Below, piece after piece: positions 15,754 to 51,976 of a stretch of DNA of 64,000 nt (positions are counted from its first letter, which is position 1; each line of letters opens with the position of its first letter). The notes below the pieces were generated by a model that was not told the DNA's origin, did no database searches, and saw only the letters and a program-made list of their open reading frames with translations. This DNA is from Nitrospinaceae bacterium (GTDB lineage: Bacteria > Nitrospinota > Nitrospinia > Nitrospinales > Nitrospinaceae), in contig OZ245011.1 in the NCBI GenBank assembly GCA_965223665.1, positions 2,464,001 through 2,528,000 of the forward strand. Direction: 5' to 3'. The translations under genes were made by a program, and so were the position numbers.

Positions 15754-16186
15754 GGCATGGCCCTCCAACTTTTATAAGACAAAAACAACTCCTTAATTTA
15801 ATCTTTAGCTTACTCCCGATATATAACCTTTGAAAAGAAAAAAAAGAATTTATTAAGAAATTTTAATATAAAATCCAACTCTCCCTCATAACACATAATA
15901 AATCAATACCTTAATATCAGGCTCTCATTTACCTACCAAGAACAAATAAATTCAATTGTTTTCCTAATCCCATCTTATCACTTGTAATTTTTTTCGGTGG
16001 ACATTAACTCACAAAAATTCATCAAATAAATATTTAGTCAAAATTTTATTGATCTATAGTTAGAACAAAAATGTTTTTAATTGAAATAATAGAAATTAGC
16101 ACTAAATAGAATCAATCTTATTGACAAATAGTTTCCCCTACATAATAATCTTCAAATTCTATTCATACCCCAAAAAGGAGGGAACC

Positions 16187-28705: not shown

Positions 28706-30073
28706 ATGAATATTTTGATCGTGGGCGCAGGAATTGTAGGGTTTAATTTAGCCCAGGAACTTTCCCATGAAGGCCATAACATCTCTATAGTAGATGACGA
28801 TTCCCACCGAATAAAACTCATTTCAGATAAACTCGACGTATTAGCTATACATGGTAATGGCTGCTTCCCAAGTGTTCTGATAAAAGCAAAAATTAGAGAT
28901 GCTGAAATGGTGATTTCTGTCACCGATAAGGATGAAATCAATCTTATGGTTTGCTTTTTAGCCCATAAGTTTAATATTCCACAAAAGTTCGCACGCCTTA
29001 GAAGCTTAGAGCTTACTGGTGAAACAAAAGTATTTCATCCGCAAGAATTGTTTGTGGACCATGCCATTAACCCAGGAGAAATAATCATTGATAACATCCA
29101 GAAAATTATCAAAACCCCTGGTGCGGTCAATGTGGCTAATTTTGCTGAAGGAGAGATTTTACTTCGTGGCTTTGACGTAACAGAAACCGCTCCCCTTGCA
29201 AACAAAATCATTCATGAAATACGCGATTTATGTGAATTCAATTCTTTTTTAGTGGTATCCATAGTCCGCGATGGAAATCTAATTATCCCAAAATATGAGG
29301 ATAAAATATGTGCGGGAGATAAAATTTATATTTTGGTTCATCGTGATTTTCTCCCTCTTGTTTTACCCATGTTTAATAAAACTGCTGACGAAATTCAAAA
29401 AGTAATTATGTTTGGGGCGAACTCAATATCGATTCACTTAGCCAAAGCACTGGAAAATTCCATTCGAGATGTTTCAATTATAGAACCTAATTTGGAAAAT
29501 GCTAATTGGGCGGCGGATGAACTTGAAAGCACGGTAATCCTACATGGGACTGGAACCGATCCCGATTTACACAACGATATAAACATGCAGGATGCAGATT
29601 TATTTCTTTCCCTCTCGGACGATGATGAATTGAATATTCTTTCCGCTCTTCTTGGGAAAAAACATGGTGCGAAAAGAGTTGTAGTGATTACTCAAGATCC
29701 TGACTACCTCCCCATTTTGGATTCCATTGGAATGGACATCACAATTAATCCACGCTTAATTACAATTTCTGCAATTCTCAGCCACCTGCGAAAAGGCCAA
29801 GTAGTGAATGTTCATAAACTTATTGAAGAAGAAGCTGAAGTTTTAGAAATCGTAACCACCTCCGAATCTGCCGCGGTAGGAAAAGCAATTAACCAACTCA
29901 AAATGCCGCAGGAAGCGATAATTGGTTCTATATTAAGAAATGGGGAAATGATTGTCCCGAGCGGAAAAACCATAATTGAGGCGGGAGACACTGTCATTCT
30001 AGTCACTCTCCCTAATTCCATAGAAAAGATCGAAAAAATTTTCGGTCGTAAAACTTCCTTTTTTCTAGGATGA
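28706..30073 (+). CDS. trkA: Trk K+ uptake NAD-binding subunit
   Basis: IVGAGIVG and tandem RCK N/C domains. Confidence 0.95.
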   Translation: MNILIVGAGIVGFNLAQELSHEGHNISIVDDDSHRIKLISDKLDVLAIHGNGCFPSVLIKAKIRDAEMVISVTDKDEINLMVCFLAHKFNIPQKFARLRSLELTGETKVFHPQELFVDHAINPGEIIIDNIQKIIKTPGAVNVANFAEGEILLRGFDVTETAPLANKIIHEIRDLCEFNSFLVVSIVRDGNLIIPKYEDKICAGDKIYILVHRDFLPLVLPMFNKTADEIQKVIMFGANSISIHLAKALENSIRDVSIIEPNLENANWAADELESTVILHGTGTDPDLHNDINMQDADLFLSLSDDDELNILSALLGKKHGAKRVVVITQDPDYLPILDSIGMDITINPRLITISAILSHLRKGQVVNVHKLIEEEAEVLEIVTTSESAAVGKAINQLKMPQEAIIGSILRNGEMIVPSGKTIIEAGDTVILVTLPNSIEKIEKIFGRKTSFFLG

Positions 30074-41903: not shown

Positions 41904-43148
41904 ATGCCTTTAAAATTAATAAGTTACCACATCACACTCCTTAAAACCTTTAAAATTGTTTTCTTGATCCTTATTGCTCTAAACTTCGGTCATTCCCTGG
42001 GCCGGGCGGAGACTGAATTCTCAATTCCCAATAATGGTTCCCCTTACCGATCCATTGGAGATTTAGAAATCGGTCAAATTCTCCATATTCCCACTGGTGT
42101 GATAGTGAATTTTGATCAAATGATGGATACCGTTTCCAGTTCAAGAGTAATCTATATTGGAGAAACTCACGACAATATTGAAGCCCACCGTATTCAACTA
42201 AAGGTTCTAAACGCAATTAATCAAAGATATCCTGGAAAAATTGCGCTTGGCATGGAAATGTTTCGCCAATCAGCACAACCTCAATTAGATGAATGGTCTA
42301 CAGGGAAATTAAAGGATAAAAATTTTCGTCGATTATTTCGCGAAAACTGGGGATCCGGGTTTCAATTATATGCACCTATATTTGATTTTGCACGCCAAAA
42401 TCACATTCCACTATTGGGGTTGAAATCCTCTAAAGAAACCGAGCAACGTTTTCGCGAAGAGGGACTGAACCTGCCAAATCTGCCTACTCTAGATACAAAT
42501 GATATTTACCATAAAGCTTATTCCATGTCTTTATTTGGTGGGAATAGCACACACAAGGAAGTGGTTTCCAAACCTTACCAAATGCTGGTTCTTTGGGAAG
42601 AAGCTATGGGAAAACGCGTTGCTCAGTTTTTAAGTAATGAAAAATACAAAGATTGGAAGCTGGTCGTTTTGGCGGGTGGTTTTCATGTTCAGTATGGTTA
42701 TGGCATTCCCAAACGAGCCTTTCGTCGCTTTCCTCATGCCTATTCTATTATTCTTCCCACTGTAACTGAAATACCCGAAAACTTGAAAGATCGGGAAATG
42801 AAATTTGAAAAAGTTTCCACACCCTTATACATTGCCGATTTTGGATGGAAAGTTGAATATAGGGTCCCTCCACCAAAAAAAATAAGGCTAGGAATTCATT
42901 TAAAAGAAAAAGACGATGGCTTATTAATCCTTAGCGTCCAACCTGAATCTTCGGCAGAAAATATGGGATTGAAAAAAAATGATCTCATCTTGAAATTGGA
43001 AAATCATTTAATTATTGATGTAGAAGACCTATCCAATAAATTACAGCAACACAAATTTGGAGATATTATAGAACTTGAAATAAAAAGGGACGGTGAAACC
43101 AAACAAATTCAAGGGACCCTTAAGGAAATAAAAAATCAAAAAAAATAA
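41904..43148 (+). CDS. ChaN/EreA-like family protein fused to a C-terminal PDZ domain
   Basis: IYIGETHDN..H, LGMEMF, WEEAM and VLAGGFH; PDZ RLGI..V.PESSAENMGLKKNDLI..RDG. Confidence 0.85.
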   Translation: MPLKLISYHITLLKTFKIVFLILIALNFGHSLGRAETEFSIPNNGSPYRSIGDLEIGQILHIPTGVIVNFDQMMDTVSSSRVIYIGETHDNIEAHRIQLKVLNAINQRYPGKIALGMEMFRQSAQPQLDEWSTGKLKDKNFRRLFRENWGSGFQLYAPIFDFARQNHIPLLGLKSSKETEQRFREEGLNLPNLPTLDTNDIYHKAYSMSLFGGNSTHKEVVSKPYQMLVLWEEAMGKRVAQFLSNEKYKDWKLVVLAGGFHVQYGYGIPKRAFRRFPHAYSIILPTVTEIPENLKDREMKFEKVSTPLYIADFGWKVEYRVPPPKKIRLGIHLKEKDDGLLILSVQPESSAENMGLKKNDLILKLENHLIIDVEDLSNKLQQHKFGDIIELEIKRDGETKQIQGTLKEIKNQKK

Positions 43149-43189
43149 AAAAAACTTGATCAATTTTTTCGATTTTTATAGTATGCGGC

Positions 43190-43585
43190 ATGCTCCGTAA
43201 AATATTTATTATCTTAATCGCAACTCTTGCATTTCTTTTTTGCGCTTCTGTATCCAGTGCGGGTCATAAGCATTACAAATCTCCTGGATTTGCTTCCAAA
43301 CATAAAATGGCTGACCATAGTTGCCCTTTGAATCATTCGCACGCTGGATTGCCCTGCCCACATTCAACCAAACACCAAGGAAAACAGGGTTGTCTTATTG
43401 GAGTGGATTGCGGGGGATCACCCTTAACTGCAATTCCATTCCCTAACATTTCTAAAAATCAATTTATTTCAAGTCACTCTATTTCTCTTACTAAGAAAGA
43501 AAATTATTCAATCCTAAATTTTAAAACTCCACTTTTTGAATTTATTTTTTTAGATTCATTAGATCCCCCTCCCAAATTTATCTAA
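43190..43585 (+). CDS. Secreted His/Cys-rich small protein with C-terminal DPPP (DUF2946/CutF-like)
   Basis: Signal peptide ending SSA; 8 His and 4 Cys in about 50 aa; ends LDPPPKFI. Confidence 0.7.
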   Translation: MLRKIFIILIATLAFLFCASVSSAGHKHYKSPGFASKHKMADHSCPLNHSHAGLPCPHSTKHQGKQGCLIGVDCGGSPLTAIPFPNISKNQFISSHSISLTKKENYSILNFKTPLFEFIFLDSLDPPPKFI

Positions 43586-43962
43586 ATCATTTCTAAAAGA
43601 AACGTGATTTTATTATCAAGGGTCATGCTTTGCCTAAATTCCTTTGATGCAAATCATTTTTCCAAAGACACTAAAAATCGATCTATACATTATTTGATGT
43701 ATTCGAAGACAAAGGTGCCACAATCCGTGTGGCTTTGATCCAATTCCATTTTGGATGGATAAAAGCTAATGGTAACAAACTCCTTAAACTCTGGTTGGGA
43801 ATGAACCTCCACCGACCAATAATTTTGGTTGGAAACAATCTTTTACCCTGCCTCAACAAGGATTTAGCTTGCAAAGCCACGCGGGGTGCATCTTGTGCTT
43901 GTGGATTTTTAATATATTCAATGTAAAAAAGTAATCCAATTAAATTTCAAGGAGAGCAAAAA

Positions 43963-44772
43963 ATGAGATCAAATTTATTTTCAAAAAGTAGAATTGATAC
44001 CCTTTTATACGGGGTTTTATTAACCACCTTTTTAGCAACAACGTTATTCTCTGTTAATGGATTTGCCAATCCACATACGACCATACTTAAAAAGAACAAC
44101 CCTGTGGATTTTTCTGTTAGAGATGAATTGGAAGGAAGTTCAAGCATTATCAATCACATTCGAATTCCCCACGGTTGTAATGGATCTGCCATAACAGCGA
44201 TGGGTGTGGTATTTCCGAATGGAGATGTGGATGCAGTAAGAATGGATACCGGAGATGAAATCGACCCTTCCGATCACATTAATGGGAATGCCATTAGTGG
44301 GGCCAAACCGGTTCAAAATCATAATATTTTCAGAAGAATTCGATACCGTGAAGCTGCTGACCCAAATTCACCTGGCAATAACAACGTTCGCGCTTTTCAA
44401 TTTAGAACAGGTTGGTTGGATCCTGGACTGATCGGTTTGATAGCATTTAATGCAAACTTTCCTTCTTTTAAGGAAGAATCATGTGCTAAAAAACTTCGAG
44501 TAAATATTGCCATTGCAAACTATTGCACAAAGTCACAGGTAGGAGATGACAGAGCAGATATTTGGATTGGCCATTTCACGCCAAAGTTTGACGATCCAGT
44601 ATTAGTGGTTCAAAGCCCACCGGGTTTTTGGCCTCATTTAAATGTTATTCGGGATCTGGAGAATAATCCACTTCCAGATGGGTGCGGCGAAGGATATGAA
44701 ATTGCTGTTTCCCCTTCTTCAAGCGACATAGATGAATATTTACCCATTCCTCAATACTGGCCTGCAAATTAA
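43963..44772 (+). CDS. YcnI/DUF1775-like secreted copper-binding protein
   Basis: AAGGAG SD; signal peptide; HTTI...EG...RIPHGC.G..IT...V.FP matches the DUF1775 N-terminal pattern. Confidence 0.65.
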   Translation: MRSNLFSKSRIDTLLYGVLLTTFLATTLFSVNGFANPHTTILKKNNPVDFSVRDELEGSSSIINHIRIPHGCNGSAITAMGVVFPNGDVDAVRMDTGDEIDPSDHINGNAISGAKPVQNHNIFRRIRYREAADPNSPGNNNVRAFQFRTGWLDPGLIGLIAFNANFPSFKEESCAKKLRVNIAIANYCTKSQVGDDRADIWIGHFTPKFDDPVLVVQSPPGFWPHLNVIRDLENNPLPDGCGEGYEIAVSPSSSDIDEYLPIPQYWPAN

Positions 44773-44796
44773 TTGGTCCGTGGAAGAACATTTTAT

Positions 44797-44839
44797 GGGA
44801 TTCGCTATAAAATTTTGTAGCGGATCCTTAAATTGTTTT
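44797..44839 (+). terminator. Terminator-like hairpin after the YcnI-like gene
   Basis: GGGATTCGCTATA/TGTAGCGGATCCT 13-bp stem whose G-U pairs work on the + strand, followed by a T-rich tail. Confidence 0.65.
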
Positions 44840-44843
44840 AAAT

Positions 44844-45599
44844 TTAATCCATAGATTGGACTAATTGTTCAAGTTGCGAGTCACCTGTAAGCTGGAGAAA
44901 AATATCTTCTAATTGACCCTGATCCATTTGGGCTTTTTCTCTAAGGTCATTTAGAGAACCGAGTGCAATTAGTTCTCCTTTTTGAATAATCCCAATACGG
45001 TCGCACATACTTTGAGCAATACTCAACGAGTGAGTGGACATAAAAAGACTTGCACCTTTTTTACATAAATCTTGAAATAACTGTTTCACTTGTCGGGCTC
45101 CCTTAGGGTCAAGTCCAACCATAGGCTCGTCCACAATTAATACTTTTGGATCATGGAGTAGTGCACCAGAAATTATTAATTTTTGTTTCATTCCATGGGA
45201 ATAACTTTCCACCAATTCATCAGCTGCATCCATTAAATCGAAAAACTCTAAATATTGTTGGGCTCTATTTTCAACATGGAATTTATCCATTTCATAGAGA
45301 TCACCAATAAATGAAAGATACTCTCGACCAGTAAGTTTTTCATAAATAAATGGTCGATCTGGAATATAACCTAACTTCTTCTTTGCAGCTTCAGGGTCCA
45401 ATGCTAAATCATGTCCAGCTACTAAAACTGAACCGTTTGTGGGTTTCAAAAGACCCACCAGCATCTTTATAGTTGTAGTTTTCCCTGCACCATTGGGCCC
45501 AAGAAACCCAAAAAATTCCCCCTTTGGAATATCCAGATTCAGACACTTTACCGCTTCATTATTTTTATATGTTTTTGTGAGGTTTTTTAATTGAATCAC
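44844..45599 (-). CDS. ABC transporter ATP-binding protein (ABC-2/exporter type)
   Basis: GPNGAGKTT, YSHGMKQ, VDEPMVGLDP and STH. Confidence 0.95.
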   Translation of the reverse strand: MIQLKNLTKTYKNNEAVKCLNLDIPKGEFFGFLGPNGAGKTTTIKMLVGLLKPTNGSVLVAGHDLALDPEAAKKKLGYIPDRPFIYEKLTGREYLSFIGDLYEMDKFHVENRAQQYLEFFDLMDAADELVESYSHGMKQKLIISGALLHDPKVLIVDEPMVGLDPKGARQVKQLFQDLCKKGASLFMSTHSLSIAQSMCDRIGIIQKGELIALGSLNDLREKAQMDQGQLEDIFLQLTGDSQLEQLVQSMD

Positions 45600-45705
45600 G
45601 TGCGGATAATTAAGATAAGTGTAATCACTTTTTGTTGATTAGCATCGCCATAAATTTTAGTGGAAAAAAGAAATTAAGTTTCTAAAGGTACTTTTTTGGT
45701 CTCAA

Positions 45706-45978
45706 TTAGATTATTTCAAATGACGATAATCCCTTGGGAGCTATCCACTCTATATCTATTTCCTTAACGGATGCAAGCACAGGACCTTTACGACACCATT
45801 CAATAAATTTTTCAATTTTTTCTTTGGTTCCTTCGGCGTGTATTTCTACGGAACCGTCCTGACAATTCCTCACCCAACCAGTCAGACCCAGTTCTTTTGC
45901 AGATTTTTCTGTACCAGCGCGGAAATATACTCCCTGGACTCTACCACGAACACTAAGATGAACTGCAGACTCCATCAC
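45706..45978 (-). CDS. acyP: Acylphosphatase
   Basis: GRVQGVYFR and GWVRN..DGSVE. Confidence 0.95.
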   Translation of the reverse strand: MMESAVHLSVRGRVQGVYFRAGTEKSAKELGLTGWVRNCQDGSVEIHAEGTKEKIEKFIEWCRKGPVLASVKEIDIEWIAPKGLSSFEII

Positions 45979-45984
45979 GAACCA

Positions 45985-46221
45985 TTATTCTCCACGATTC
46001 GCTTTATCGTAAAGATTTTGAACTTCTCGATAAATAGAAAATTTAGATCCCTCACCAATTTTCTCTCCATATTTCCCTAAATCTCTCATTATTCGCTGAA
46101 ACTCAGACAATCCCCCAGTGAAATTATCTATGAGAGGACGAAAAGAAGCTTGCTCTTCATTATCCAACCGATCACAAATTTGCCTTAGTCGATTTTTTAA
46201 ATCTTCGTAGTTCTTTTCCAT
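45985..46221 (-). CDS. Small helical hypothetical protein
   Basis: 78-aa ORF directly upstream of acyP, with a promoter abutting the ATG. Confidence 0.7.
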   Translation of the reverse strand: MEKNYEDLKNRLRQICDRLDNEEQASFRPLIDNFTGGLSEFQRIMRDLGKYGEKIGEGSKFSIYREVQNLYDKANRGE

Positions 46222-46306
46222 AGCCGTATGTTACTCGCAAGAATTTAGCTTTGCAACGAAATTTCCTAACCCGCTCTGACGAAATAAACTTTCCAAAAAC
46301 TTAAAA

Positions 46307-46341
46307 TTGACCTATCGATATATTTTGTGGTATATATCGAT
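46307..46341 (+). promoter_or_regulatory. ModE-type operator overlapping the modABC promoter
   Basis: ATCGATATATT-N6-TATATATCGAT (46314-46341) versus the consensus ATCGnTATATA-N6-TATATAnCGAT; TTGACC at 46307. Confidence 0.85.
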
Positions 46342-46363
46342 ATTAATTTCTCTATAAATTCAT

Positions 46364-47137
46364 ATGAGACACCCAATTCTAATATTCATTTTTTTCCTTA
46401 ATTACTTTTTCACTTTGCCTATTGTAGAAGCGGAGCCAGTAACTGCTGCAGTTTCATCTAATTTTTTAAATACCTTTAAGCATATCGCCGGTGAATTTGA
46501 AAAATCTACCGGAAATAAAGTTCATATTGTATCTGGATCCACAGGTAAGCTTTTCACCCAAATCGTCCATGGAGCACCCTATGATATTTTTTTAGCCGCC
46601 GACCAAAAGCGCCCAGCACTATTAAAAAAAAGAGGATTAGTTCTCAAAGAAGCTTGGACATATGCCTTCGGTAAATTAGTCCTTTGGACCACAAACTCGA
46701 AATATGATCTTAAAGAGGGAGAAAAATTTTTAAGAAAAAGTTCTTTCAAGTACATTGCACTAGCAAATCCTAAAACTGCACCCTATGGTAAGGCGACCCT
46801 TGACACATTGAATAATTTAAAGCTTTACCAAAAACTAAAATCCAAAATGGTATTTGGAGAAAATGTGGGGCAGACTTTTCAATTTATTGCTACGCAAAAT
46901 GCTGAGTTAGGGTTTATTTCTTTATCTCAAGTACTGGATCCAAATTTAAAAATAAAAGGAACCTATTGGAAAGTTCCAGTAAATTATTACGATCCCATTG
47001 CTCAAGATATAGTTCTACTTAAACAAAAAAGTATTAATTCTTCCGCTGTAGATTTACTCGATTTTTTAAAATCAAAATCTACACAAAGGATAATTGAAAA
47101 ATACGGTTATGGAATAACAAATAAGGAAATAAAATGA
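46364..47137 (+). CDS. modA: Molybdate ABC transporter substrate-binding protein
   Basis: GSTGKL..QI.HGAPYDIFLAAD, ANPKTAPYG and GENVGQ. Confidence 0.95.
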   Translation: MRHPILIFIFFLNYFFTLPIVEAEPVTAAVSSNFLNTFKHIAGEFEKSTGNKVHIVSGSTGKLFTQIVHGAPYDIFLAADQKRPALLKKRGLVLKEAWTYAFGKLVLWTTNSKYDLKEGEKFLRKSSFKYIALANPKTAPYGKATLDTLNNLKLYQKLKSKMVFGENVGQTFQFIATQNAELGFISLSQVLDPNLKIKGTYWKVPVNYYDPIAQDIVLLKQKSINSSAVDLLDFLKSKSTQRIIEKYGYGITNKEIK

Positions 47138-47814
47138 ACCACTGGGAAATAGACTGGGGACCTATTTGGATAACCTTGCAACTCGCATTAGTAACTGTCT
47201 TTATTCTTTTATTGATTGGAACTCCACTCGCATGGTGGTTAAGTCAAACAAAATCACGATTACGACCTTGGATAGAAGCCGTTACTACCTTACCTCTGAT
47301 TTTACCTCCAACTGTTCTTGGATTTTATTTATTAATTTTAATAGGTAAAAATGGAATCGTAGGAGGTCCAATTGAGATGCTTACCGGATCTACTTTGGCA
47401 TTTTCCTTTACAGGACTAGTAATTGCTTCAACCATTTATTCCCTTCCATTTGTGGTCCAACCTCTACAAACGGCTTTTGAATCTGTTGGAGTGTCCCCTT
47501 TAGAAGCCGCATGGACTTTACGCGCATCTAAATGGGATTCTTTTTTAACAGTCGCTTCTCCATTGGCTTTTCGCGGTTACTTAACAGCAGTTGTCTTAGG
47601 GTTTGCCCACACGCTAGGAGAGTTTGGAGTGGTGTTGATGGTGGGTGGTAATATTCCAGGGAAAACTAAAGTAATCTCTATCGCAATTTATGATTATGTT
47701 GAAACTTTGGAATACGCTCAAGCACATATTCTATCGGCTGGCTTATTAGCCTTTTCTTTTTTAGTTTTATTATTGGTCTATTCTGTTAACCGTCGTTTTC
47801 CAGTCCATTTGTAA
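47134..47814 (+). CDS. modB: Molybdate ABC transporter permease
   Basis: LPLILPPTVLGFYLL and FAHTLGEFGVVLMVGGNIPG. Confidence 0.96.
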   Translation: MNHWEIDWGPIWITLQLALVTVFILLLIGTPLAWWLSQTKSRLRPWIEAVTTLPLILPPTVLGFYLLILIGKNGIVGGPIEMLTGSTLAFSFTGLVIASTIYSLPFVVQPLQTAFESVGVSPLEAAWTLRASKWDSFLTVASPLAFRGYLTAVVLGFAHTLGEFGVVLMVGGNIPGKTKVISIAIYDYVETLEYAQAHILSAGLLAFSFLVLLLVYSVNRRFPVHL

Positions 47815-48914
47815 TGAGTATCATTAAGGCAAAATTCCAAATTAATTTTCCTCCATTTCAATTAGAAACAAACCTTGAAGTCCCCACTAAAGGCGTAACA
47901 GTCATTTTTGGCCCTTCGGGATGTGGAAAAACGACTTTCCTAAAATGCATTGCTGGATTGATACGATCACCCAATGGATATTTTCAATTAGGAGAAGAAA
48001 TTTGGCAAGATGAAACCAAAAATATATTCCGCCCGGTACACAAACGAGGGATTGGGATGGTATTCCAAGAAGCCCGCTTATTTTCCCATATGTCGGTCGA
48101 ATCTAATTTAAAATATGGCCAAAAACGAATTCCATTATCTGAAAGAAGAGTGACTTGGGAACAAATAATAAAAATTATGGATCTAAGCCCCTTATTAAAG
48201 CGGTCTCCCAAAAAATTATCAGGGGGAGAACAACAACGGGTTGCCATCGGTCGCGCTTTATTAACCAGTCCAAAAATTTTATTAATGGACGAACCTCTAG
48301 CAAACCTGGATACCACTCGCAAGTTAGAAATCATTCCCTTCCTGACTAAATTAAAGGAAGAATTAGAAATTCCCATTTTCTATGTTAGCCATTCATTAAC
48401 CGAAGTATTGCAAATAATGGATACACTCGTCTTAATGGGAAACGGGGAAATTATTACAAGTGGCGCAGCCAATAAGGTTATGGCACAAACAAATCTTCCT
48501 CAAGCCACTTCATTAAATTTTCGGGGTTCTATCCTAGAAACCAAAGTTGTTGACCATGATATAGAATTTAATTTGACACGGGTTCAATTTAGAAATCATT
48601 TTCTGTATATTCCCCGCCAGCCTTTTAGCTCTGGACAAACTTTACGTTTGCATGTTTTGGCAAAAGATATAAGTATTCATTTAAACCCGCCTCAAGGACC
48701 AACCAGCGTACTCAATATATTATCGGGAACAGTATTAGAAATTGGAATGATAAATTCAAAAGAATCGTCAGTAGAAATTCAATTAGACGTAGGAGAGCCT
48801 ATATTAGCTACCATAACTCGAAAATCTCTCCATGACCTGGACTTAAAACCTGGCCAGCAAGTTTATCTTTACTTTAAAGCGGTAAAAATGATTCACGAAA
48901 TTGAAGAGAACTAA
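47814..48914 (+). CDS. modC: Molybdate ABC transporter ATPase with a TOBE domain
   Basis: GPSGCGKTT, VFQEARLF, LSGGEQQRVAIGRALL and TSVLN..ATITRKS. Confidence 0.96.
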   Translation: MSIIKAKFQINFPPFQLETNLEVPTKGVTVIFGPSGCGKTTFLKCIAGLIRSPNGYFQLGEEIWQDETKNIFRPVHKRGIGMVFQEARLFSHMSVESNLKYGQKRIPLSERRVTWEQIIKIMDLSPLLKRSPKKLSGGEQQRVAIGRALLTSPKILLMDEPLANLDTTRKLEIIPFLTKLKEELEIPIFYVSHSLTEVLQIMDTLVLMGNGEIITSGAANKVMAQTNLPQATSLNFRGSILETKVVDHDIEFNLTRVQFRNHFLYIPRQPFSSGQTLRLHVLAKDISIHLNPPQGPTSVLNILSGTVLEIGMINSKESSVEIQLDVGEPILATITRKSLHDLDLKPGQQVYLYFKAVKMIHEIEEN

Positions 48915-48940: not shown

Positions 48941-51900
48941 TTAATGAGCCATTTCATTTTCAATGTCAGGGTTAATTTTGATGGCCATTTGATAATGCTT
49001 GCGGGCAGCGTCTTCATTTCCAACCAACTCATTTATCATACACAAATTGTAATGAGCTTTAGCTAGCTTTGGATTAAGACGAACTGCCTGGTTAAAAGGA
49101 CCTAGGGCTTCATGATAATGCTGTAATCTATAATAAACATCTCCCAATTGGAATTGCACTTCTGGATCTCTTGGCAATAGCTTTGCCGCTTTAGTTAAAT
49201 GGATCAATGCTTCCTCAGATTGATTATTCCTTATATACATCATCGCCAGTTTAAATAGAGATCTTGCATCTTTAGGATTTCTACGAATGGCAGCATCTAA
49301 CCGAGCACGTTCCTTTTCATCCTCAATTGACATTTGAGGAACTTTTCCTTTTAACTTATTATCTCCATTTGAAGCACTCGCATTTGATTGTTTAGGAGGT
49401 TCTTTTTCATCATTAGAATCTTGAACTGCTTTTTTCGGCTTAGCTTCAATCACAGTTGGAGGAGCAGACATATCTTGGAAGGTCTTTAATTTTGATTCTA
49501 ATTCGGTTCGCAAGTTTTGTTCTGATTGGATTCGTTCTTTTAATGCTTTTATTTCTTCTGTAAGATTGGAAACGTCATTTTCCAAACTAATTTTTTCTTC
49601 CTTGGCTTTACTCTCAGTGGCTTTGAGCAGTTCAAATTCTTTTTTCAATCCTTCCACTTCACCACTTCCTTCAACTTTTTCTTTAAGAACTCCGTCTAAC
49701 TTTTCTTGTGTTTCTTTTAATTGTAATTTTAATTTATTATTCTCTTCTGTGATTTTAGACTCTGTTTTCATTAGAGAGTTTATTTGTTTCTGTAATGCTT
49801 CAGCTGCACTAGAGCCTTGACTCTTCTCCTTAACTACATTTTCCAAATTAGTTCGCGCTTCTTTAAATTTTGCCTCTAAATCCGATTTTTCTTTTTTAAT
49901 ATTCTCCTCCGACTGACGGAGGGAACTTATTTGTTTCTGTAAGGCTTCAATCGTTCCCGATCCTTTGGATGCTTCCTGAACCGCAGATTCAAGTTTTTTC
50001 CTATGATCGTTAAATTCAGTTTCCAATTTAGTTTTTTCAACTCTCAATTTTTCTTCAGAATTACGAATTGAATCAACTTGTTTCTTCAAAGCCTCAATAG
50101 CACCAAGGTTTTTAGAATTATCTCTAACAACTGAGTCTAATTGGGATTTAGTCTCATTTAATTGACTTTCCAGTTTTTTATTCAAAGAGGAATTTTTTTC
50201 CAATTCCCGCTTATAGGAATTTTCCTGATTAACATGTTCCTTAATCTTTGATTCAAGCTGAACTTTTTCGGTTTTTAAAGTGTCTTCTGTTTTACGCACC
50301 TCTTCAATTTGCCTTTGAAGTGCTTCTGCCGCACCGGAACCTTTGGCAGATTCCTTTAACGCCTCATCCAATTTTGCTTGAGTTTCCTTTAATTCATTCT
50401 CAATTTTCTTCTGTTCTAATTTAACGCTTTCAGTCTCTTTTTGGGAAGAAGCAATTAGATCCTCATAGTCATTAACCTTACTCACTAAATCTACTTTTTC
50501 TTCTTTAAGTAATGCTTCAGATTTATTCTTTTTCTCAATTTCGCTTTGTAAAGCTTCGGCAGCACCCTTACTTTTTGCAGATTCTTTAAGTGTCTCTTCT
50601 AACTTGGATCTTGTACTCTTAAGCTCATTTTCCAATCCTTCCTTTTTGGCTTTAATTTCTAATTCTGATTTTCGAATAGTATCTGCTTCTTTTTGTAAAC
50701 TTTCCGTTTTCGTCAAAAGGGTTTGATTTTCTTTATGAGCTTTTTCTAATTTTGATTCTGTTTCTTTTAACTTCCCAGTCAAGCCATCCTTTTCAGATTT
50801 TAGATTTTCTTCTTCTTCCCGGGCTTTTGAAATTTGTTTTTGTAATTTTTCAGCAACATCGGATCCTTGCGCAGATTCCTCTAAAGCTTCATCCAATTGA
50901 GATTGGACATCTTTCAGGCGATTGTCTAAAGCAAGTTTTTCTGTCTTTAAAGATTCTTCACCCTTCCTTAATTCATCAATTTGTCTTTGTAATTCTTCCG
51001 TGAGACCTGAAGTTTTGGCGGAATCTTTACTGGTTTCGTCCAATTGTGATTGAATACTTTTAAGACTTTTTTCTAAATGTTCCTTCTCTCCTTTTAACTC
51101 TTTTTCAGATTCCTGGAGCTCTTCAATTTGTTTTTGCAAAGAATCGGTTAGGTCGGATCCATCAGTTGAGGATTTAATGGCCTCATCCAGTTTTATTTTT
51201 AAATCCTCTAACTGAATATTAAGTTCAGCATTTTCATTCTTTAAAGCCTCTTCGGATTTTCTGACAGAATCAATTTCATTTTGAATATTTTTAACATCTG
51301 AGGAAGATGTTTTTTGGGCTGTTTCTAAGGCAGATTTAACTTCTTCTAAATCTTTTTCCAGTTTTAATCTTTTGTCTATTTCTGCTTTTAACTCTTCGTC
51401 CGAAACACCATCTTTTTCAGAAGATGTTTTTTTAACTTCCACTAATTCAGAATTTACTTCTTTCAATTCTTGTTCTAGTTTTAATCTTTTTTCTACCTCT
51501 TTATTAAACTTTTCCTCTGAAATCCCAGCGTTATCTTTAGAGGAAGAGGATTCATTAGCCCGCTTAAGTTGAGATTCAATTTCTTTTCGAGCATCTATCT
51601 CTTCCAACAACTTTTTATTAACCTGATATAATTCTTCAGTTCGCTCGGATAAACTTTTTTCCACACTCGCCCGTTTTTCCTGCTCCATTTGGAGTTCTAT
51701 ACTCGACCCATCCAATCCACCAGACGAATCGGCGTTTTCTTGAACGGAAGATAATTTGGCTTTTACTTCTTTTAATGCATTTTCTGCATTAATTCGTCTT
51801 TGTATTTCCTTTTTGAGTGCATCGTCAGATCCAGAAGCACCACCCTGGGTAGCAGAAGCTAGTTGTTGCTTAGCTTCCTTTAGCTCTTGAGTACGTTCTT

Positions 51901-51976
51901 TTAATTGAGAGCTAAGGCTTTGTAGTACTTCTTGAAGTGTTTGCGCAACACCTTTATTGGGGGTAGTAGACATCAA
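48941..51976 (-). CDS. Long coiled-coil repeat protein with C-terminal TPRs
   Basis: About 830 aa of heptad pattern with 49-aa repeats; TPR motifs such as NPKLAKAHYNL; no TM helix or signal peptide. Confidence 0.88.
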   Translation of the reverse strand: MMSTTPNKGVAQTLQEVLQSLSSQLKERTQELKEAKQQLASATQGGASGSDDALKKEIQRRINAENALKEVKAKLSSVQENADSSGGLDGSSIELQMEQEKRASVEKSLSERTEELYQVNKKLLEEIDARKEIESQLKRANESSSSKDNAGISEEKFNKEVEKRLKLEQELKEVNSELVEVKKTSSEKDGVSDEELKAEIDKRLKLEKDLEEVKSALETAQKTSSSDVKNIQNEIDSVRKSEEALKNENAELNIQLEDLKIKLDEAIKSSTDGSDLTDSLQKQIEELQESEKELKGEKEHLEKSLKSIQSQLDETSKDSAKTSGLTEELQRQIDELRKGEESLKTEKLALDNRLKDVQSQLDEALEESAQGSDVAEKLQKQISKAREEEENLKSEKDGLTGKLKETESKLEKAHKENQTLLTKTESLQKEADTIRKSELEIKAKKEGLENELKSTRSKLEETLKESAKSKGAAEALQSEIEKKNKSEALLKEEKVDLVSKVNDYEDLIASSQKETESVKLEQKKIENELKETQAKLDEALKESAKGSGAAEALQRQIEEVRKTEDTLKTEKVQLESKIKEHVNQENSYKRELEKNSSLNKKLESQLNETKSQLDSVVRDNSKNLGAIEALKKQVDSIRNSEEKLRVEKTKLETEFNDHRKKLESAVQEASKGSGTIEALQKQISSLRQSEENIKKEKSDLEAKFKEARTNLENVVKEKSQGSSAAEALQKQINSLMKTESKITEENNKLKLQLKETQEKLDGVLKEKVEGSGEVEGLKKEFELLKATESKAKEEKISLENDVSNLTEEIKALKERIQSEQNLRTELESKLKTFQDMSAPPTVIEAKPKKAVQDSNDEKEPPKQSNASASNGDNKLKGKVPQMSIEDEKERARLDAAIRRNPKDARSLFKLAMMYIRNNQSEEALIHLTKAAKLLPRDPEVQFQLGDVYYRLQHYHEALGPFNQAVRLNPKLAKAHYNLCMINELVGNEDAARKHYQMAIKINPDIENEMAH

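Follow-up and report, generated by a model that had tools for sequence, protein, structure and literature searches.

Introduction

Copper-sensing leader peptides are a recent addition to the known forms of bacterial gene control, of which CruR, described in 2022, and CutF, described in 2023 and 2025, are the systems closest to the one that we report here. So far, they have been found mainly in Pseudomonadota, and by survey also in Bacteroidota and Actinomycetota. Here, we analyze a candidate system of this kind in the genome of a Nitrospinaceae bacterium (assembly GCA_965223665.1). It consists of a small open reading frame (ORF1), a spacer of 377 nucleotides (nt) and a gene for a divergent YcnI/DUF1775-like protein (ORF2). 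These are located on a stretch of 64,000 nt (contig OZ245011.1, positions 2,464,001 to 2,528,000 of the forward strand) that we refer to as the window; positions are those of the window and its plus strand unless another strand or locus is named.

The portions of the published reports on which this comparison draws describe the known systems as follows. CutF of Rhodobacter capsulatus, a DUF2946 protein encoded in the cutFOG operon, has 118 amino acids (aa), a cleavable Sec signal and a CxxxC motif within its exported part (PMC9973294). Its tail reads GPPPRL, elongation factor P (EF-P) is involved, and a stem-loop covers cutO's Shine-Dalgarno (SD) sequence (PMC9973294; 10.1101/2025.02.05.636593). 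Proteins are called CutF-like when they are shorter than 150 aa, have Pro-Pro within the last 15 residues, carry a signal peptide and are encoded upstream of a same-strand gene at a gap of less than 1000 nt; they fall into 29 sequence clusters that differ in their Cys/His motifs and stem mostly from Pseudomonadota and Bacteroidota (PMC9973294). CruR (Bp2923) of Bordetella pertussis, also a DUF2946 protein, has 145 aa and is predicted to be exported; it is followed by an intergenic region of 162 nt with a C>G bubble and Rho-dependent termination before the gene of a TonB-dependent transporter (PMC9426467). Its arrest was later shown in vitro, with the P and A sites occupied by its two Pro codons (PMC12992588). 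Finally, upstream ORFs with a RAPP or RGPP motif precede genes encoding TonB receptors, YcnI-family, PCuAC and PepSY proteins (Fujiwara et al., EMBO J 2025, PMC12992588).

An earlier note, made from the letters of the window, had pointed out the combination of a signal, Cys/His motifs, a Pro motif near the stop codon and a downstream copper-type gene. We find that the first three of these features are shared across the family to which ORF1 belongs, and that the distance from the Cys to the Pro-Pro pair is fixed in this family. From these features, and by analogy with the described systems, we favor, at a probability of roughly 0.55, the reading that ORF1 is a metal-sensing leader peptide of the CutF/CruR type that would control ORF2 in cis.

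Results

ORF1 Belongs to a Family of Small Proteins with Invariant Cys and His Residues

ORF1 (43190-43585) encodes 131 aa and is the candidate sensing leader peptide; its product is Cys/His-rich and predicted to be exported. Residues 1-24 are signal-like. By eye, this segment consists of MLRK, a hydrophobic run and SSA|G, and AlphaFold2 (AF2) places a confident helix at residues 2-21, in agreement with the Sec signal that had been proposed. It is followed by a His/Cys cluster (residues 25-79), a variable linker (80-121) and a conserved tail (122-131). The metal-ligand patch reported earlier is present in the translation, which contains GHKH, KH, DHSC, NHSH, CPH, KH and CLIGVDC, and ends with LDPPPKFI.

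ORF1 has no match in Pfam or NCBIfam. A word-indexed protein search with ORF1 returned a single relative, P0002 (73% identity, tail LDHPPRSI), and a HMMER search with the two-sequence profile of ORF1 and P0002 returned 25 proteins at E ≤ 1e-3. One of these, P0066, was rejected: it is a protein of 1463 aa with immunoglobulin (Ig)/cadherin repeats and without the Cys residues, and its score was inflated by seven repeats. The resulting alignment of ORF1 with 24 relatives (A3) is the basis of all counts out of 25 given below. Its members range from 96 to 153 aa and can be aligned over their whole length. A search of the word-indexed database with the A3 profile returned five proteins, none of them new.

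The residues C45, C56, P57, H58, C74 and G75 and the pair P127-P128 are invariant in A3, and H26, H29 and G76 are present in 22-23 members (G76 in 23). The codons of the invariant ligand candidates lie at 43322-43417 and correspond to C45 in H-x-C-P-L, C56-P57-H58 and D73-C74-G75-G76. The family thus has one invariant Cys at each of the motifs HxCPL, PCPH and DCGG, and it has neither CXXC nor CxxxC. A hydrophobic, signal-like N-terminal segment was recognized by eye in 24 of the 25 rows; the remaining sequence, P0068 (96 aa), begins after such a segment.

The ratio of non-synonymous to synonymous substitution rates (dN/dS) between ORF1 and its counterpart in the P0002 genome (locus L001, see below) is 0.18, with a dS of 0.86. 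Because of this ratio and of the 24 distant relatives that share its motifs, ORF1 is more than a chance reading frame, and the sequence comparison identifies it as a real gene of a conserved small-protein family. When AF2 was run on A3, the helix at residues 2-21 was the only confident element and no secondary structure was predicted elsewhere (mean predicted local distance difference test score (pLDDT) 62, predicted template modeling (TM) score 0.26). When all frames of the window and of the two related loci described below were searched with a hidden Markov model (HMM) of the family, no second copy emerged in any of them. A 61-aa frame ending in HPPPN (29502-29687, minus strand) was considered as a second copy and rejected, since it lies antisense inside a TrkA-like gene.

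A Pro-Pro Pair Keeps Its Distance to Both the Stop Codon and the Last Cys in Most Members

The candidate arrest site is the tail D125-P126-P127-P128-K129 (43562-43576); the codons for K-F-I, counted from K129, lead to the stop codon at 43583-43585. All 25 members contain the Pro-Pro pair, and in 21 of them exactly three residues separate it from the stop; the other four have two, four, six or seven residues after the pair. The residue before Pro-Pro is P in 11 members, H in 10 and R in four, and the residue after it is K in 13, R in eight, Q in three and D in one, so that the conserved tail can be written as [P/H/R]-P-P-[K/R/Q]-x-x-stop. RPP therefore occurs in four members, and RAPP or RGPP in none.

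These counts modify two statements of the earlier note. It had taken DPPP as the motif; conservation of a Pro tail near the stop holds for Pro-Pro, in 25 of 25, and fails for PPP, which is present in only 11, the closest relative having DHPP. The conserved unit is thus Pro-Pro. The note had also held that DPPP sets this system apart from the known class, which does not stand, as CutF itself ends with GPPPRL according to the source (10.1101/2025.02.05.636593).

Next, we determined the distance between C74, the Cys of DCGG, and the Pro-Pro pair. The number of intervening residues is 51 in one sequence, 52 in six, 53 in 17 and 55 in one; hence, 23 of the 25 members have 52 or 53, and the standard deviation (s.d.) is 0.71. 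The sequence of this linker is, nevertheless, the least conserved of the protein, with 2.92 bits per column versus 2.19 for the His/Cys region and 1.67 for the tail. A linker that is fixed in length and free in sequence, together with a Pro-Pro pair at a fixed distance from the stop, argues for selection on the nascent chain in the ribosome and not on a folded domain.

ORF2 Resembles YcnI at the Level of Family and Predicted Fold

ORF2 (43963-44772) encodes a protein of 269 aa that is predicted to be secreted or anchored. Its strong SD sequence AAGGAG (43949-43954), located 8 nt before the ATG, is kept in L001. The translation contains NPHTT and IPHGC. The assignment of the gene to DUF1775, made in the earlier note, is not reached by the window protein alone, which stays below the cut-off of PF07987 (E = 0.095; 13.5 vs 25 bits); it is supported at the level of the family and the fold. 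A word-indexed search with ORF2 found 59 proteins at E ≤ 1e-3, including that of the window itself, and among those with a named source are proteins from Candidatus Nitronauta litoralis, a Planctomycetes bacterium and Brocadiaceae. Alignment A2 contains 31 of these 59 homologues; 17 of the 31 match the DUF1775 HMM at E ≤ 1 (best 4.1e-05), and one homologue has a precomputed PF07987 annotation. H38, H70, C174, C188 and C241 are invariant in A2, and C72 is nearly so.

The AF2 model of ORF2 has a mean pLDDT of 78.5. In a Foldseek search against the PDB, YcnI (7me6) ranked first (E = 1.6e-3, probability 1.00, TM 0.67 over the target), and further matches were 7mek, 8um6 (YcnI) and 3esm; the YcnI set spans E values from 1.6e-3 to 7e-3 and TM values of 0.67-0.69. 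All fold matches have E values above 0.001, and Ig-like folds of cohesin and pilin rank close behind. YcnI was not found when the ORF2 profile was compared with PDB sequences, where the sole match, ribosomal protein L13 (E > 0.3), was rejected as chance. Taken together, the family matches and the modeled fold indicate that ORF2 is a divergent relative of YcnI/DUF1775 of roughly double size.

Compared with YcnI of Bacillus subtilis (7me6, 7mek), which is its best structural match, ORF2 likewise has a conserved His after the signal/anchor helix, but it is about twice as long (269 aa vs about 129 aligned) and the identity is 11-12%. In YcnI, the His brace involves a His directly after the cleavage site. 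Judged by the predicted cleavage sites, the Brocadiaceae-type members alone (A|HTT) have the invariant H38 in this position; in members from Nitrospinota, N-P or D-P precedes H38, and in the window protein it is N-P. For the Nitrospinota proteins, an N-terminal His brace of the YcnI type is thus uncertain, because two residues would precede the His if cleavage occurs after the Ala.

ORF1 Relatives Precede Two Kinds of Uptake-Type Genes

A genome scan with a four-sequence alignment (A5) revealed two loci, L001 and L002, both from Nitrospinaceae metagenome-assembled genomes. L001, which belongs to the P0002 genome, has the same gene order as the window: its genes encode a YhdP-like protein, SpoU, ChaN-PDZ, ORF1, then, after a spacer of 362 nt, an orthologue of ORF2 (87% identity) and an ATP-binding cassette (ABC) ATPase. 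The order of ORF1, spacer and YcnI-like gene is thus retained in one close relative, as had been proposed as a check. L002 has a different neighborhood, with a divergent upstream gene; its ORF1 relative is 38% identical and has the tail LDHPPKSL. Here, a spacer of 267 nt is followed by genes for a TonB-dependent receptor, an unknown protein of 430 aa, ExbB, two ExbD proteins and TonB. The 430-aa ORF between the receptor and ExbB (8826-10118 of L002) has an N terminus like that of a lipoprotein and matches no NCBIfam model. Since L001 and the window have a YcnI-like gene and L002 has a TonB-receptor operon, one type of leader stands ahead of two kinds of uptake-type genes.

Metal-uptake operons commonly include small periplasmic binding proteins, and the adjacency of metal-uptake genes raises the question of whether ORF1 might be such a protein, a chaperone or buffer that partners the YcnI-like protein or the TonB receptor, in which case the Pro-Pro pair would be a structural element or a recognition tag and no pause would occur. 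The purifying selection on ORF1, its invariant Cys and His ligand candidates and its signal-like N terminus all fit this explanation, which we nevertheless consider unlikely. It does not account for a linker that is fixed in length though least conserved in sequence, or for the fixed distance between Pro-Pro and the stop, both of which point to the nascent chain and the ribosome instead of to a fold, and AF2 indicates no fold past the signal helix. Moreover, spacers of 267-377 nt are unusual for operon partners, and proteins of the same architecture are proven cis regulators.

The Spacer Combines a C>G Tract, a Conserved Island and a Conserved Structured Domain

The spacer between ORF1 and ORF2 (43586-43962) is exactly 377 nt long, as stated before, and a terminator scan found no intrinsic terminator-like site on its plus strand. 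A G-poor, C>G stretch that resembles a Rho utilization (rut) site extends from 43424 to 43631, across the stop codon, and takes in the 3' third of ORF1 as well as ~45 nt at the start of the spacer. The C/G ratio along this stretch is 2.0-5.3 in windows of 78 nt, and the 150 nt from 43431 onwards, with 32 C against 6 G, have the most extreme composition of either strand in the 64 kb. Matching C>G bubbles are present at the same relative place in L001 (6235-6494) and L002 (6329-6458), with C/G ratios of 2.1-3.0. A rut-like composition alone is no proof that Rho acts at the stop region of ORF1, and the tract is accordingly best called a candidate site. The sole other stretch of 200 nt with an equally extreme C/G ratio in the window, 15779-15983 (plus strand), lies between ORFs without a Pfam match.

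The description of the spacer as rich in hairpins is borne out for the strand that carries ORF1: the plus strand folds better than all 100 shuffled sequences (z = -3.86), which is not the case for the minus strand (z = -0.68). The corresponding values for the spacers of L001 and L002 are z = -3.16 and z = -2.19. The fate of the specific hairpin proposed at the stop codon (AAAUCA/UGAUUU with an inner UUUCU/AGAAA pair, 43584-43610) is mixed. Its complementary arms, AAATCA at 43584-43589 and TGATTT at 43605-43610, are present in the sequence, but the hairpin is not the local minimum-energy fold, which instead pairs GUGAUUU with a second AAAUCAU at 43651-43657, and L001 lacks the TGATTT arm. GTGATTT at 43604-43610 is able to pair with either of two copies of AAATCAT (43584-43590 and 43651-43657), a mutually exclusive, attenuator-like arrangement that is absent in L001.

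When aligned with L001, the first ~110 nt after the ORF1 stop are near neutral with the exception of one island, AAAUUCCUUU (43636-43645), which is anti-SD-like and has poorly conserved flanks. In both the window and L001, the island serves as the 3' arm in a local hairpin (z = -1.79 and -2.65, respectively), whose 5' arm starts about 10-30 nt past the stop and whose partner sequences differ between the two. RNAalifold pairs UCCUU of the island (43640-43644) with AAGGA (43949-43953) of the ORF2 SD, a weak result of 5 bp from two sequences only. No local stem-loop was found over the ORF2 SD itself (z = +0.83 in the window, +0.25 in L001 and -1.06 in L002, relative to shuffled sequences).

These data bear on an output of the strict CutF type, in which a paused ribosome would melt RNA and thereby open or close the ribosome-binding site of ORF2 through the island and its hairpin, and no Rho would be involved. 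The conservation of the island between unconserved flanks, its predicted pairing with the SD, the presence of its hairpin downstream of the stop in both loci despite different partners, and the likeness of the ORF1 tail to the PPPRL of CutF all speak for such an output. We hold it to be rather improbable, however, because about 55 nt separate the island from the stop, which puts it out of reach of a ribosome paused at Pro-Pro, and because its pairing with the SD, which spans about 300 nt, is missing from the centroid fold; the lack of a local stem-loop over the SD points in the same direction, and the comparison consists of two sequences.

Further downstream, the region 43709-43896 constitutes a conserved, structured domain of ~190 nt with a predicted long closing helix and internal hairpins, such as CCGACCAA/UUGGUUGG at 43812-43832. 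Blocks of its nucleotide sequence are strongly conserved in L001 in spite of a dS of about 0.6-1.1. The domain is non-coding, as indels put it into different frames in the window and in L001 even though its nucleotides are preserved; for the same reason, small ORFs in the spacer were rejected as genes. The consensus that RNAalifold derives from the window and L001 is a closed domain with 56 pairs, of which two show compensatory changes; from two sequences, this is no more than a lead. An Rfam scan of positions 42000-46500 of the window gave two matches at E ≤ 1, a eukaryotic microRNA and a long non-coding RNA model, both far below their thresholds, and a scan of L001 and L002 gave no match. 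The spacers of the window and L002 show no similarity and the domain is absent from the latter, so the domain travels with ORF2 and not with ORF1, and it may represent an independent RNA element. A promoter-like site within the spacer (43795-43823) was rejected because its -10 element is lost in L001, and promoter-like sites are not enriched (four found vs 7.6 expected).

The explanation that ORF2 is regulated alone, through a promoter and/or a riboswitch-like or protein-binding 5' leader made up by the 43709-43896 domain, with ORF1 unrelated or loosely coupled, is quite improbable: although the 3' 250 nt of the spacer are non-coding and far better conserved than its near-neutral beginning, and although the strand-specific folding in the window and L001, the 56-pair domain with its compensatory changes and the absence of that domain from L002 are in its favor, it lacks an Rfam family, covariation between two sequences is almost uninformative, the single promoter-like site is not kept, and the conserved Pro-Pro tail and its ruler are left unexplained by an arrangement that can, in addition, coexist with a leader peptide.

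A Promoter-Like Element Immediately Precedes ORF1

The sequence TTGATC-N15-TATAGT (43156-43182), which ends 7 nt before the ATG of ORF1, can be read as a putative promoter, although the consensus promoter scan did not list it. The stretch from AAAAAAAACTTGATCA to TATAGTATGCGGCATGCTCCG, which comprises this promoter-like region, is almost identical in the L001 alignment. An alignment of the upstream region with L002 was uninformative; the equivalent element in L002 is TTGATA-N15-TTATAT, followed by 9 nt up to the ATG. Thus, an element of the form TTGAT(C/A)-N15-TATAGT/TTATAT ends 7-9 nt before the start codon in all three loci (43156-43190 in the window, 5967-6001 in L001 and 5965-6001 in L002). 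ORF1 has no SD sequence upstream. Given this and the proximity of the promoter-like element to the ATG, the ORF1 mRNA may be leaderless or nearly so.

The -35-like element of ORF1 is overlapped by a near-perfect palindrome, AAAAACTTGATCAATTTTTT (43150-43169), that is kept in L001. The palindrome could be an operator or, alternatively, the end of the upstream ChaN-PDZ transcript.

Other Features of the Window

A terminator-like hairpin followed by a T-run (44797-44828) is located after ORF2 and marks the end of the presumed ORF1-ORF2 unit. According to Pfam, the upstream neighbor of this unit is a ChaN haem-binding/PDZ gene, and the downstream neighbor, on the opposite strand, encodes an ABC ATPase. 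The remainder of the 64 kb contains housekeeping genes, among others those for a 2-oxoacid:ferredoxin oxidoreductase, a molybdate-type ABC transporter and a YhdP/AsmA-like protein. The molybdate-type transporter operon (46364-48914, plus strand) is located 1.6 kb downstream and encodes an SBP_bac_11 binding protein, a permease and a TOBE-domain ATPase. It is followed on the minus strand (48941-51976) by the gene for a protein of 1011 aa with long, repetitive, charged, coiled-coil-like segments and a C-terminal TPR region; the homologous C terminus of this protein is also encoded in L001.

Discussion

A Model for ORF1 as a Leader Peptide

In the analysis presented here, we describe a family of small proteins with invariant Cys, His and Pro-Pro residues at fixed spacing, a gene order that is followed in three loci, and a spacer with a distinct composition and pattern of conservation. 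For the export of ORF1, its metal binding and pausing, the metal concerned, the direction of regulation and the output step, we infer the following. ORF1 would be translated and exported co-translationally through Sec. At the invariant Pro-Pro pair, by analogy with the toeprint of CruR, translation would pause with P127 in the P site and P128 in the A site. About 52-53 residues would then separate the peptidyl-transferase center from the last ligand Cys, which, judging from the measured spacing, would place the Cys3/His cluster just clear of the ribosomal tunnel and the translocon. Binding of a metal, most likely copper, at the cluster would alter the pull on the nascent chain and hence the length of the pause, again by analogy.

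The paused ribosome would stand in the middle of the G-poor, C>G tract, and its presence or release would decide on the completion of the leader and the expression of ORF2. The most likely output is access of Rho to the rut-like region, as in CruR; alternatively, the anti-SD-like island might re-pair with the ribosome-binding site of ORF2. With respect to direction, ORF2 would be expressed when the metal is scarce and shut off when it is plentiful, as is the case for CruR. Repression by the metal is expected because the downstream genes, encoding the YcnI-like protein or the TonB receptor together with ExbBD-TonB, look like uptake functions.

Several observations weigh against assigning ORF1 to the CutF/CruR type. 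The motif of the family is not RAPP or RGPP, the motif shown to arrest robustly. The DUF2946 model (Pfam PF11162), which the earlier note had named as a check, matches none of the 25 members even at E ≤ 10. The hhalign comparison of A3 with CzcI gave a probability of 38.5% over 34 columns around D-C-G, and with an alignment of five CzcI-like sequences it gave 11% (local) and 1% (global); the sequences compared were CzcI of pMOL30 and four plasmid proteins that are CzcI-like or annotated as DUF2946, and no CutF- or CruR-type sequences were included. The stop-codon hairpin is not conserved in L001. A spacer of 377 nt and the lack of a local stem-loop over the SD mean that the output of CutF is not directly transferable, and the 43709-43896 domain, which the L002 spacer lacks, could regulate ORF2 alone, or the spacer could hold a promoter for ORF2. 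Lastly, the predicted lack of a fold in ORF1 comes from an alignment of just 25 sequences, and the neighborhood is known for only three of the 25 members, two of which are close relatives of each other.

We also consider a farther-reaching version of the leader-peptide reading, which we put forward tentatively and regard as doubtful. ORF1 and its relatives might form a separate lineage of exported metal-sensing arrest peptides, outside Pfam and centered on Nitrospinota, with three Cys and a His as ligands (HxCPL, PCPH and DCGG), [P/H/R]PP[K/R]xx-stop as the pause motif, and a ruler of 52-53 residues that would span the tunnel and the Sec channel. The readout in the window would then be a leader of 377 nt, whose rut-like tract, anti-SD island and RNA domain of ~190 nt would jointly decide on the transcription and translation of ORF2, and the same sensor would stand ahead of different uptake operons. 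If this were true, it would amount to a portable periplasmic metal sensor in marine nitrite oxidizers.

For the leader-peptide reading as such, the findings have three implications. First, searches with the DUF2946 HMM or for RAPP/RGPP would miss the ORF1 family, and catalogues therefore probably under-count the class. Second, a strict ruler of 52-53 residues beside a freely varying linker bears on the question of how metal binding on the outside reaches the peptidyl-transferase center. Third, the locus suggests that copper acquisition is under post-transcriptional control in organisms that matter for marine nitrite oxidation.

Comparison with Known Systems

Systems of this kind, and their pairing with YcnI-like and TonB-receptor genes, are already in print. 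A full-text literature search found no paper that names this Nitrospinota family; supplementary lists of members were outside that search.

CzcI of Cupriavidus metallidurans pMOL30 resembles ORF1 in its signal-like N terminus, a His-rich stretch and D-C-G (DTDCGVCH vs VDCGG). It is encoded upstream of metal transport genes and has a [D/E]-R-P motif near its C terminus, but it has no Pro-Pro, and homology is not demonstrable by hhalign. The signal-like N terminus, the His-rich stretch, D-C-G and [D/E]-R-P also occur in the four plasmid proteins compared alongside it. CzcI itself matches the Pfam model of DUF2946 with an E value of only 0.026. Among the neighbors of ORF1 in the ESM Atlas, which we treat as leads only, DUF2946/CzcI clusters make up two of 30 in an open search and nine of 30 named clusters, with scores of up to 0.95, and the Bacteroidota families DUF6769 and DUF6660 also occur. 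Because the DUF2946 HMM matches no member and the hhalign probabilities are weak, we liken ORF1 to the CutF/CruR leaders and do not file it in DUF2946.

ORF1 has all four properties by which CutF-like proteins were collected: it has 131 aa, its Pro-Pro pair is at residues 127-128, a signal is recognizable by eye, and ORF2 follows 377 nt downstream. As far as the cited portions of the reports describe CutF, ORF1 shares with it the small size, a Sec-like signal, a Cys motif in the exported part and a position directly upstream, on the same strand, of a copper-related gene, as well as a C-terminal Pro repeat with a basic residue behind it shortly ahead of the stop (DPPPKFI vs GPPPRL), tails of the form PPP[K/R]x[L/I] resembling that of CutF. 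The two differ in the ligand motif, which is CxxxC in CutF and C-x10-CPH-x15..20-DCGG in ORF1; in the gap to the next gene, which is short and has a stem-loop over the SD between cutF and cutO, whereas that between ORF1 and ORF2 is 377 nt without such a local structure; and in the downstream gene, which encodes a multicopper oxidase involved in detoxification in the case of CutF and a YcnI-like protein or TonB receptor of the uptake type in the ORF1 family.

In some respects, the ORF1 family is closer to CruR, as described in the same body of reports. Both have a fixed Cys-to-Pro distance, a long intergenic region and a C>G bubble that extends from the 3' part of the ORF into that region, and L002 additionally has a TonB-dependent transporter gene downstream. 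However, CruR has CXXC and RAPP with 45 residues in between, the spacing reported for DUF2946, whereas the ORF1 family has DCGG and [P/H/R]PP separated by 51-55; the intergenic regions are 162 nt and 267-377 nt long, respectively; and CruR is found in high-GC Betaproteobacteria and the ORF1 family in low-GC Nitrospinaceae. Dependence on Rho, which was shown for CruR, is for the ORF1 family a prediction from composition.

The RAPP/RGPP upstream ORFs, according to the available part of that study, are likewise small, have a localization signal and a Pro-Pro near the C terminus, and precede the same two classes of downstream genes. Those before YcnI-family genes mostly have transmembrane segments (PMC12992588), whereas the ORF1 family has a signal-like N terminus only. 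A search for R[AG]PP would miss most of the family because its motif is [P/H/R]PP. From the sequences compared here, the system would thus represent not a new principle but the same logic as that of CutF and CruR, here in Nitrospinaceae.

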